Shown here piece after piece: positions 55,509 through 55,788 of a stretch of 64,000 nucleotides of DNA. Both the position numbers and the translations under genes were made by a program. How positions within the stretch are numbered: the first letter of the stretch is position 1; every line of letters begins with the position of its first letter. The notes beneath the pieces are model-generated. The model searched no databases, had not been told where the DNA came from, and was given only the letters and a program-made list of their open reading frames with translations. Source of the stretch: a virus (lineage: Duplodnaviria > Heunggongvirae > Uroviricota > Caudoviricetes); the IMG/VR virus record IMGVR_UViG_3300032167_002310. The stretch is one strand, 5' to 3'.

Positions 55509-55609
55509 AAAAGTTTTTTCAGCCTCCCTAACAGGAACCTTGGTTTGGAGGCCACCTACTTCTATGGTTCCTTCAGCAATTCCGGCGATAAAAAACAAGA
55601 CCGCTTTTT

Positions 55610-55646
55610 CGATTTAACGGCGCTCTCCCAGCTGAGCTATCCCCCT
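55610..55646 (-). tRNA. tRNA 5'-half-like segment (acceptor 5' strand plus D-arm) located 3' of a tRNA 3'-half-like segment: permuted arrangement
   Basis: AGGGGGATAGCTCAGCTGGGAGAGCG... ; its acceptor strand AGGGGGA is exactly complementary to TCCCCCT of segment 55651-55707. Confidence 0.35.
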
Positions 55647-55650
55647 ATGT

Positions 55651-55707
55651 TGGCAGGGGGAGAAGGGCTCGAACCTCCGACTTCCGGCTTGGCAGGCAAT
55701 CATTTGA
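55651..55707 (-). tRNA. tRNA 3'-half-like segment (T-arm, acceptor 3' strand, G, CCA) immediately 5' of its complementary 5' half, joined by ACAT
   Basis: ...GGAGGTTCGAGCCCTTCTCCCCCTGCCA followed by ACAT then AGGGGGATAGCTCAG...; contains direct repeat TTTTCAAATGAT. Confidence 0.35.
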
Positions 55708-55788
55708 AAATTGCAGTAACGGTCTTTTATTTAGGTATTATCATTTGAAAACTGTCAAGTAGGTTTTATCCCACTCTGTCCACAGTTT

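Follow-up and report, generated by a model that had tools for sequence, protein, structure and literature searches.

A circularly permuted tRNA-like element in a phage tRNA array as a candidate Y-type RNA partner of the Ro-like DUF2828 protein

The tRNA array of a tailed phage (Caudoviricetes; IMG/VR record IMGVR_UViG_3300032167_002310) carries an element in which a complete tRNA is encoded in circularly permuted order. The analysis covered a 64,000-nt stretch of this phage, here called the window, and all coordinates are positions in it, with the permuted element read on the minus strand. The element comprises a tRNA-Gly(GCC)-like body and a terminal helix followed by the local form of a conserved ACAGCAA motif; the helix and the motif are together referred to as the handle (Table 1). 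We consider it likely that this element is a phage Y-like RNA that partners a Ro-like DUF2828 protein and that is probably opened by RNase P to give a CCA end. This reading builds on features that were computed directly: the structure of the element, its membership in an RNA family, the covariation within that family, its presence in multiple copies, the linkage to DUF2828 genes, and the Ro60 fold of the DUF2828 protein.

On the minus strand, the element reads T arm, UCCCCCU, GCCA followed by ACAU, AGGGGGA, UA, D arm, G, and CCG, exactly as the initial annotation of this DNA had it. The two acceptor strands, which that annotation had described as complementary but in the wrong order for a linear tRNA, pair at seven of seven positions. 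Two features went beyond it: an anticodon loop, CUGCCAA (55695..55689), which precedes the T arm, and a 9-bp helix (55726..55718 with 55605..55597 in RNAfold) that closes the whole element just before a U run. Joining the downstream piece (nt 1-29) to the upstream piece (nt 30-76) gives a 76-nt cloverleaf, which ARAGORN calls as tRNA-Gly(gcc). Every part of a tRNA is present, that is, the D arm, a 7-nt anticodon loop with GCC, the variable loop, the T arm, a 7-bp acceptor stem, and G73-CCA. The permutation break is located at 29/30, within the anticodon stem, and all five pairs of this split stem can form (GC/GC plus CGG with the CCG that follows the D arm and G26). The natural tRNA ends are bridged by ACAU after G73-CCA. 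The new ends carry conserved single strands and the clamp helix; the break is thus flanked by 13- and 12-nt single-stranded linkers, with the 7-nt motif in addition on the 13-nt side, and by an uninterrupted 9-bp helix.

Neither ARAGORN nor the Rfam tRNA model calls an ordinary tRNA at the element, and none is called within 55054-56501. Hence, the flanking halves that would complete an ordinary tRNA are missing, as had been proposed. The overlap between the element and ARAGORN tRNAs is 0 nt, which excludes an artefact caused by ordinary tandem tRNAs, a known source of false positives in searches for the bacterial Y RNA YrlA (PMC4201824).

A tRNA-like part in this order could also belong to a two-piece (permuted) transfer-messenger RNA (tmRNA). 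Permuted ssrA genes, reportedly described by Keiler et al. in 2000, are said to have the order T arm-acceptor-CCA followed by acceptor-D arm, and the tRNA-like part of the element has this same gene order. Moreover, both have a permuted tRNA-like domain with an encoded CCA, and tmRNA is processed into two base-paired pieces. However, ARAGORN, which is able to detect permuted tmRNAs, finds none, and there is no tmRNA match in Rfam. The element has G3-C70 rather than G3:U70, as well as a normal D arm and anticodon loop, and the 12 nt between the D arm and the handle hold neither a tag open reading frame (ORF) nor pseudoknots. The negative ARAGORN and Rfam results, G3-C70, and the lack of a tag ORF exclude this reading for all practical purposes.

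The permuted architecture is shared by a family of viral RNAs. A scan of viral contigs for the T-loop...D-arm pattern gave 120 loci, and the 139 matches that were assessed for acceptor complementarity show a bimodal distribution: 32 pair at 7/7 and 32 at 6/7 positions, while the bulk, at 2-4, are ordinary tandem tRNAs. This bimodality indicates that the element is more than a chance arrangement. Loci fetched through the neighbouring gene for a cyclic-phosphate-processing receiver domain (cREC) gave sub-threshold YrlA matches and, by eye, show the same plan with different stem sequences. Approximately 45 non-redundant viral loci share the permuted architecture. Alignment of about 30 non-redundant members reveals a terminal helix, often AAGAC.../...GUCUU, that is followed by the invariant ACAGCAA, and then the T arm, the 7-bp capped acceptor stem, the D arm, and the 3′ strand of the helix with a G and a U-rich tail (3′ consensus ...CUUGUuuuuu). 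Within the motif, written as ACWGCAA to include the local form, C, G, C, A, and A are invariant (alignment A1). RNAalifold predicts 24 pairs, 18 of them with compensatory changes, and all eight modelled handle pairs covary. A covariance model built here from the family alignment (R1) was used to search 0.95 Mb and gave 54 matches at E<=1e-9; about eight of these, as well as the matches at 51797-51924 and 52280-52363 in the window, are tandem-tRNA artefacts and were set aside. In 52 distinct sequences, 95.4% of the cells are paired, compared with 63.9% after shuffling and ~40% with slid partners, and 22 of the 24 pairs change on both sides. Matches outside the R1 seed and without tRNA overlap keep seven to eight of the eight handle pairs and all seven acceptor pairs.

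A relative, L075, has an orthologous permuted element (L075:189-330) that is 80% identical to the one in the window. Compensatory changes distinguish the two elements in the closing helix (handle strands AAGGCAUUU/AAAUGCCUU in L075), the acceptor stem, and the T stem, the anticodon region is identical, and the linkers are nearly unchanged. The acceptor loop GCCAAUAU is also kept, the form common to this pair being GCCAA(C/U)AU. In L075, the element is located directly behind a phage consensus promoter and directly before a tRNA-Ile gene. These data bear on whether the element could be a dead relic of a tandemly duplicated tRNA gene in which each copy has lost its outer half. The window does contain tandem tRNAs with 0-nt spacers and its tRNA genes encode CCA, and an origin from dimeric tRNAs is plausible and has been proposed for YrlA (bioRxiv 10.1101/312249). 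A dead remnant, however, is not expected to show compensatory changes in every helix over ~45 loci, stems that covary while loops are kept, a consensus promoter in front of the L075 element, a closing helix that joins the ends, or several sibling copies per genome. We therefore regard decay as a highly improbable origin of what is seen today.

The family falls into two classes. The 16 members of class I, which include the window element, have a closed 7-nt anticodon loop with varied anticodons, U33 in 15/16, and a purine at position 37 (R37) in 15/16, and all 16 are called as tRNAs by ARAGORN after de-permutation. In class II, the break replaces the anticodon loop, as in canonical YrlA, and U33 is present in 8/24, which equals the background frequency. 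Nine of ~43 members have NCCA immediately after the acceptor 3′ strand, compared with ~0.7 expected.

Class I raises the question of a genuine permuted tRNA gene, in which the handle and linkers would be excised, positions 29 and 30 ligated to form a circle by the RNA ligase and end-healing enzymes of the phage, and the acceptor loop opened by RNase P and 3′ trimming to generate a decoding tRNA-Gly(GCC). The initial annotation had offered two alternatives, a permuted tRNA gene as in algae and archaea or a Y-RNA-like module. Of this proposal, the permuted topology stands, but the junction features of the algal and archaeal genes are lacking. Permuted tRNA genes are found in Cyanidioschyzon merolae, other algae, and an archaeon (Soma et al. 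2007, cited in bioRxiv 10.1101/312249). Like these, the phage element has its 3′ part upstream of its 5′ part, yields a complete tRNA on de-permutation, closes its acceptor stem by a short linker after CCA, and has two RNA ends that pair. The standard 76-nt cloverleaf, the ARAGORN calls for all class-I members with their varied anticodons, the retained U33 and R37, and the encoded GCCA all fit such a gene. So does the presence in the phage of an RNA ligase, a cREC domain, a metallophosphatase, and Thg1, and the possibility has been raised for YrlA in general (bioRxiv 10.1101/312249). Unlike the C. merolae-type genes, however, the element has no bulge-helix-bulge at its junction, where long conserved linkers, a conserved motif, and the 9-bp helix are present instead. 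The setting is that of bacteria and their phages, and no splicing-type endonuclease was identified. Class-II siblings lack anticodon loops, handle-only RNAs have no tRNA part at all, and the handle is common to all.

The identity elements for aminoacylation are not kept either. Glycine identity in bacteria involves C2:G71 and U73. The element has A1-U72, G2-C71, G3-C70, and G73; among the phage tRNAs, it is nearest to tRNA-Ala in sequence, and with G3-C70 and G73, and without glycine identity, it is not evidently chargeable with either glycine or alanine. Position 1 is G in only six of the 16 class-I members. Moreover, the phage already has a normal tRNA-Gly(GCC) gene at 42420-42494, and its tRNAs cover all 20 amino acids. 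Together, these points make a decoding tRNA very unlikely as the product of the element.

The Y-RNA-like reading is favoured for three reasons: YrlA is the sole non-tRNA match in Rfam, the family covaries and is linked to a gene with the Ro60 fold, and there is precedent in the YrlA literature. YrlA is a Y RNA bound by Ro60/Rsr that carries a tRNA-like domain with its parts in the same order (Chen et al. 2014, PMC4201824), and most YrlAs "resemble circularly permuted tRNAs" (bioRxiv 10.1101/312249, which reports a YrlA crystal structure and discusses an origin from dimeric pre-tRNAs as well as the algal permuted tRNAs). The permuted topology itself is thus already known for YrlA. The window element matches the Rfam YrlA model (RF02553) over its full length, 1-114, at 55589-55706 (minus strand) with 30.6 bits (E=3e-4). 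Relatives in the family score 29-40 bits for YrlA and have no other Rfam match. The likeness extends to the order of terminal stem, T arm, loop-capped acceptor stem, D arm, and terminal stem, and to the nucleotides that make tertiary contacts in tRNA (U8, A14, G15-C48, G18G19, and the T-loop). It also includes the location on the same strand as a gene with the Ro60 fold, with adjacency for sibling copies. YrlA and the shorter YrlB share a 5′ GNCGAAN0-1G motif, which is the proposed Rsr contact, and lie within 4 kb of rsr (PMC4201824); the phage family is likewise accompanied by shorter RNAs with only the 5′ motif and stem. In Mycobacterium smegmatis, YrlA has a 7-bp acceptor stem, as does the phage element, is cleaved by RNase P, and gains CCA (PMC4201824). 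The phage family differs from YrlA in having ACWGCAA after the stem instead of GNCGAAN0-1G, and in a partner gene with DUF2828/DUF7788 rather than TROVE. Sixteen phage members keep a closed anticodon loop with the break at 29/30, so that the whole tRNA is present, and NCCA is genome-encoded in ~20% of the family. Furthermore, the phage has ~12 copies in its tRNA array, compared with one or two beside the gene for YrlA.

The proposed partner is encoded by the sole gene with a Ro60 fold in the window. An AlphaFold2 model of the DUF2828 protein has a Ro60-like HEAT ring followed by a vWA domain. In a Foldseek search against the PDB, ranks 1-13 are all Ro60/Rsr structures aligned over the full length of the protein (520-580 columns), among them the Ro60 of Thermus phage phiLo (9KOP, the best match, 1.4e-6), Deinococcus radiodurans Rsr (2NVO, 8e-6), 1YVR, and Xenopus and human Ro60; matches after rank 13 cover the vWA domain only. 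Pfam TROVE has no match in the protein at E<=1, and a PDB sequence search returned only noise. Hence, the relation to Ro60 is visible at the level of the fold only. The phiLo system (PDB 9KOP, 9L5Y) offers the nearest precedent. It has a phage protein with the Ro60 fold and phage Y-like RNAs upstream of its gene, and the protein binds two of these RNAs together with the host PNPase (PMC12135203). The two proteins share ~14% identity, and the phiLo RNAs, Yrl1 and Yrl2, differ in that they were chosen by a CGAA motif and a stem-bulge-stem and are not described as tRNA-like (PMC12135203).

In the collection searched, 705 phage records have a DUF2828 homologue, which in mycobacteriophages carries the annotation 'Ro-like RNA binding protein'. 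When all ORFs of the window were compared by tblastn with the loci fetched solely by the RNA pattern, DUF2828 was the most frequent co-located gene (11 loci). In 13 of 15 phage genera, the window counted, a handle or an R1 match is located on the gene strand 0.06-2.4 kb from DUF2828, mostly in unannotated gaps that touch the gene. The handle scan, in which CWGCAA has to come after a helix of 8 bp or more, gave 30 sense matches, compared with five antisense and 3.4 in shuffled sequence. Handle/R1 matches lie just upstream of DUF2828 in Listeria phage LP-124 (three), Campylobacter phage Los1, and Fusobacterium phage Fnu1, and at the start of the gene in Vibrio phage K567. In Bacillus phage Thrax3, they are found in gaps of the tRNA array and just upstream of the gene, and FelixO1 has two in tRNA-array gaps downstream of it. 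Downstream locations are also seen in Staphylococcus phage 6ec (three in tandem, directly after the gene) and Mycobacterium phage Appletree2 (at 107 nt). R1 matches were found just upstream in Enterococcus phage EfsSzw-1 (107 and 91 bits) and Pseudoalteromonas phage J2-1 (86 bits), just downstream in Klebsiella phage FBKp34 (84 bits), and 1.3 kb upstream in Sinorhizobium phage phiM12 (75 bits). Short handle-only RNAs that adjoin DUF2828 genes have the ACAGCAA motif as well. Virions of the P100-like Listeria phage CKA15 contain the DUF2828 homologue, and three very abundant unannotated RNAs are produced less than 2 kb upstream of its gene, which the authors speculate to be Y RNAs (PMC12282133). 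These RNAs fit the handle RNAs found in LP-124. No paper on an RNA partner of DUF2828 came up in a full-text literature search for this domain.

The linkage also bears on whether the RNA might act through its tRNA body alone, as a decoy or sponge for tRNA-targeting defences such as anticodon nucleases and tRNA-modifying toxins. In this scenario the handle would be a stabiliser and the Ro-like protein would not be needed. The closed class-I loops with U33/R37 and many anticodons suit a decoy, as does the anticodon region, which is 100% conserved between the window and L075. In addition, a large tRNA array beside RNA-repair genes is a known setting of counter-defence (PMC7824862). A decoy would, however, leave unexplained the invariant ACAGCAA, the class-II members without an anticodon loop, and the handle-only RNAs beside DUF2828 in Staphylococcus, Listeria, Fusobacterium, and Campylobacter phages, and we regard it as unlikely.

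The phage appears, from its sequence, to encode about a dozen small structured Y-RNA-like RNAs, some 12 copies being scattered through the tRNA array. Nearly all genes in the window are on the minus strand, with 37-38 tRNA genes between 41.2 and 56.6 kb. The handle scan of the window gave 14 matches on the gene strand, compared with one antisense and 1.0 in shuffled sequence, and 12 of them lie within 40.2-56.6 kb. Several copies are listed in Table 1. The one closest to the DUF2828 gene is part of a promoter-handle RNA-DUF2828 arrangement that is also present in the relative L137. Two handles enclose ordinary-order tRNA-like genes, so the handle can also carry non-permuted tRNA cargo. Further handle RNAs on the minus strand are located at 42190-42355, 43269-43362, 45219-45392, 47888-48038, and 48278-48373, in addition to the one at 51332-51422. 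One of these has an insert with a T arm only, several are 90-175 nt long and of unfamiliar structure, and the short ones are AU-rich.

Table 1. Parts of the permuted element, sibling RNAs, and selected genes in the window. R1 scores refer to the covariance model described in the text.
Feature	Position	Strand	Evidence or remark
Whole RNA element, handle plus permuted tRNA-Gly(GCC)-like body, 130 nt	55597..55726	-	R1 95.4 bits, full length
Whole element including U-rich tail	to 55588	-	
Candidate extended -10 promoter TGATAATAC, 8 nt upstream of handle	55735..55743	-	putative, by inference only
Closing (handle) helix, 5′ strand AAGACCGUU	55718..55726	-	RNAfold pairing with 55605..55597
ACUGCAA, local form of conserved ACAGCAA, directly 3′ of handle 5′ strand	55711..55717	-	candidate protein-recognition site
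Single-stranded 5′ linker UUUUCAAAUGAUU, holds second copy of TTTTCAAATGAT repeat	55698..55710	-	kept in L075 while stems change
Distal anticodon arm: G30 C31, 7-nt loop CUGCCAA (anticodon GCC, U33, A37), G39 C40, C41 G42 G43	55684..55697	-	
Variable loop AAGUC, 5 nt; C48 able to make Levitt pair with G15	55679..55683	-	sequence reading and tRNA numbering
T arm GGAGG-UUCGAGC-CCUUC	55662..55678	-	three variable T-stem pairs covary in family
Acceptor stem, 3′ strand UCCCCCU	55655..55661	-	7/7 pairing with 55646..55640; all 7 pairs covary in family
Acceptor-stem loop G73 + CCA + ACAU	55647..55654	-	predicted RNase P site between 55647/55646
Acceptor stem, 5′ strand AGGGGGA	55640..55646	-	
U8 A9, D arm GCUC-AGCUGGGA-GAGC, G26, C27 C28 G29 (proximal anticodon-stem strand)	55618..55639	-	
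D arm GCUC-AGCUGGGA-GAGC alone	55637..55622	-	
Single-stranded 3′ linker UUAAAUCGAAAA	55606..55617	-	one base different in L075
Handle 3′ strand AGCGGUCUU then GUUUUUUAU	55588..55605	-	RNAfold; R1 match
Sibling handle RNA, degenerate tRNA-like insert	40219-40357 (R1 match 40213-40357)	-	R1 36.6 bits; handle scan; behind consensus promoter, ~60 nt upstream of DUF2828 start
Sibling permuted tRNA-like RNA, class II, no closed anticodon loop, acceptor loop GCCAUUAAUU	46710-46835	-	R1 82.2 bits
Sibling permuted tRNA-like RNA	47727-47849 (R1 match 47719-47851)	-	R1 50.4 bits; handle scan
Short handle RNA without tRNA-like insert	51332-51422	-	handle scan
Handle enclosing ordinary-order 'tRNA-Asn' at 51865-51938, all-A/U acceptor	51854-51969	-	
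Short RNA made up of a handle (stem + CAGCAA) without tRNA-like insert, 330 nt downstream of element	55201-55265	-	R1 search, handle scan
Handle enclosing ordinary-order tRNA-Gly(UCC) at 56502-56574, acceptor stem mismatched, no CCA	56490-56606	-	
Proposed partner gene, DUF2828 + DUF7788	38620-40179	-	Pfam; probable true start ATG near 40158
cREC (cyclic-phosphate-processing receiver domain), upstream neighbour, RNA-repair-linked family	55903-56256	-	Pfam PF20274, E=2.7e-18

The interspersed handles might instead be a processing or termination cassette of the tRNA operons, either an RNase III-type stem or an intrinsic terminator, with the permuted tRNA as incidental cargo. The handle 3′ strand is followed by G and a U-rich run, handles are interspersed among tRNAs, and the two that enclose ordinary-order genes accord with such a role. 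However, the stems enclose 50-170 nt, unlike intrinsic terminators, and an invariant single-stranded ACAGCAA is unexpected for RNase III sites. Moreover, handles abut DUF2828 where there are no or few tRNAs nearby (Appletree2, 6ec, Fnu1, and Los1), and the inserts are themselves under structural selection. A cassette of this kind is, in our judgment, quite improbable, although the U-rich tail that follows the handle may play a role in termination or processing.

Several points weigh against the identification of the element as a Y-like RNA. The window element scores below the RF02553 gathering score of 69 bits and has no GNCGAAN0-1G motif in its 5′ part, the only CGAA being that in AUCGAAAAAG in the 3′ linker; hence, homology between its protein-binding module and that of known Y RNAs is unproven. 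Assignment of ACAGCAA as the protein-binding site comes from gene linkage, and the existence of the RNA, its cleavage, and its binding by the protein are all computational predictions. The AlphaFold2 model is of moderate quality (predicted local distance difference test score 69, predicted template modelling score 0.51, template modelling score ~0.5) and was built on a shallow alignment. The window element lies 15.4 kb from the DUF2828 gene, on the same strand, with sibling copies adjoining the gene. In Erwinia phage pEa_SNUABM_12 and Aeromonas phage avDM12, there is no handle RNA within 1.5 kb of DUF2828. The two handles around ordinary-order tRNA-like genes fit a processing role equally well. 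Finally, the T-loop and D-arm sequences were prescribed by the seed pattern, and pairing was a criterion in the choice of seeds; the conservation of these parts is therefore not independent evidence. Independent evidence comes from the bimodality of the acceptor complementarity, the non-seed matches, and the orthologue in L075.

Taking the element as a Y-like RNA partner of the DUF2828 protein, the following model can be proposed. The RNA would be a small non-coding Y-type RNA with the architecture of bacterial YrlA and would be transcribed from the same operons as the phage tRNAs. The handle, that is, the terminal helix and ACWGCAA, would act as the docking site for the Ro60-like protein, while the remainder is predicted to fold as an L-shaped tRNA body. 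The permuted appearance arises because the chain enters and leaves this body through the anticodon stem (29/30), the acceptor stem being capped by a loop. With its 7-bp acceptor stem and GCCA, the RNA could plausibly serve as a substrate of RNase P. To judge from M. smegmatis YrlA, the host enzyme probably cleaves between 55647 and 55646, after which trimming back to CCA would take place. The new 5′ terminus is predicted to be that of AGGGGGA (55646) and the new 3′ terminus that of ...UCCCCCUGCCA (55651). The resulting tRNA mimic would consist of two pieces and end in CCA, with the handle keeping the pieces together. The protein would bind the RNA, and the resulting ribonucleoprotein most likely acts in RNA surveillance or repair during infection. 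One role of the RNA could be to link the Ro-like ring with a nuclease or a factor that recognises tRNA, in the way that Y RNA tethers Ro60 to PNPase. Alternatively, it could present a tRNA look-alike to such factors or nucleases.

In a bolder version, the handle would be a portable tag by which the Ro-like ring is loaded with varied cargos of tRNA shape, be they complete permuted tRNAs that have anticodon loops, mimics lacking an anticodon, or ordinary-order tRNAs. Permuted cargos would be opened by RNase P into two-piece molecules with CCA ends, which would then be charged, or else be repaired and re-ligated into working tRNAs by the RNA-repair enzymes of the phage. We consider this an unlikely extension; if true, it would represent the first pathway for maturation of permuted or split tRNAs among bacteria and their phages, and a Y ribonucleoprotein would here form the basis of a machine for tRNA quality control or counter-defence.

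As to expression of the element, the phage has a 29-nt promoter consensus, TTGATTTTTnnnAAAAAATATGnTATAAT, with 23 copies in the window (0 expected), all on the minus strand, including 40376-40404, 55151-55179, 55383-55411, 55480-55508, and 56445-56473. Many of them drive tRNA or small-RNA units rather than proteins. The element had been placed downstream of three promoter copies. All three (55508-55480, 55411-55383, and 55179-55151) are minus-strand promoters, which places them downstream of the element and directs their transcription away from it. At the site of the candidate extended -10 promoter, the relative L001 has TGATAATAT, and the orthologue in L075 has the full phage consensus promoter in its place. 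A direct repeat, (A/G)TTTTCAAATGAT, had also been reported around the element. It is present in two copies, 55752-55740 and 55711-55699, but both lie at or before the 5′ part and do not flank the element. The 12-mer TTTTCAAATGAT occurs three times in the window (1.3 expected), which is not significant on its own, and only the internal copy is conserved in L075. A functional pair was therefore rejected and the upstream copy regarded as incidental. A pseudoknot or conserved structure at 55571..55522 (GGAACC/GGUUCC plus GCCUCC/GGAGGC) is unsupported: the L001 alignment is poor, the fold z-scores are -0.5 and -0.2, and the structure is absent in L075.

A megablast search of the locus against the phage collection gave no match, and there is no close cultured relative. 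The cREC protein encoded upstream has no identical sequence on record; in the relatives L001 and L003, a family RNA adjoins the cREC gene. Between the cREC gene and the RNA is a 38-aa hydrophobic ORF (55790-55906, minus strand; MKLLFILGGCAMAALCIAGVGAILGIIAVHMHQASENF) that could encode a small membrane peptide. The wider neighbourhood is one of RNA repair, with cREC, RNA ligase, RNase T-like, Thg1, metallophosphatase, weak RlaP, SIR2, and NAMPT. Downstream of the Ro-like gene, an island of RNA-repair and nicotinamide adenine dinucleotide genes (24936-36055 and 17129-18601, minus strand) includes a weak RlaP-like nucleotidyltransferase, a metallophosphatase, an RNase T-like exonuclease, AAA_28, SIR2, Thg1, and NAMPT, as well as an RNA ligase that is a weak Pfam match. 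This setting is consistent with a role in RNA surveillance or repair, or with a counter to tRNA-directed defences (PMC7824862).

Other features of the window and its relatives stand apart from the element. At 45943-46059 (minus strand), Rfam, but not ARAGORN, finds a 117-nt 'tRNA' (38 bits). Its acceptor stem (GGGGAUU...AGUCCCC-ACCA), D arm, and T arm are normal, and ~45 nt with a CUGCAAUC motif replace the anticodon arm. An AAA/STAND-like ATPase is encoded inside the tRNA array (48716-49828, minus strand), and the window also encodes a full-length sigma-70 family factor (32902-33927) and an SPFH/flotillin-like protein (11730-13262, minus strand). A YcaO cyclodehydratase gene (61894-63699, E=2e-30) lies beside two weak radical-SAM-like ORFs (58049-59500 and 59493-60869), and the region 58049-63699 (minus strand) resembles a peptide-modification cluster of the kind that makes ribosomally synthesised and post-translationally modified peptides, which is unusual in a phage. 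In the viral contig L002, a ROOL RNA (2382-2973, 317 bits) is located immediately upstream of a cREC gene. LP-124 has a ROOL-like match (4495-5046, 87 bits, below the gathering score of 99) between tRNAs ~1 kb upstream of DUF2828. The tRNA array of L075 includes an ARAGORN tRNA with anticodon UCA (5078-5151), of the selenocysteine or opal-suppressor type.

Ro60-Y RNA particles are well studied in animals and a few bacteria, whereas the commoner phage DUF2828 protein had no defined RNA partner. The phages that carry it include FelixO1, Listeria P100/A511-like, Enterococcus, Staphylococcus, and Campylobacter phages and cluster-L mycobacteriophages. The present data offer a concrete candidate for this partner, a covarying RNA family with a terminal helix and then ACAGCAA as its signature, which is not captured by Rfam. 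Relative to Rfam and the accessible literature, the subfamily with the ACAGCAA handle and its proposed DUF2828 partner appear to be new, as are the high copy number in tRNA arrays and the complete permuted tRNAs with anticodon loops and encoded CCA. The candidate family would account for the RNAs of very high abundance, absent from the annotation, that were reported upstream of DUF2828 in the P100-like Listeria phage, and familiar phage genomes would gain dozens of RNA genes that have been overlooked. Its complete permuted members bear on the origin of tRNA mimics from tandem tRNAs, on their possible opening by RNase P, and on whether phages use tRNA look-alikes against host defences that cleave tRNA.

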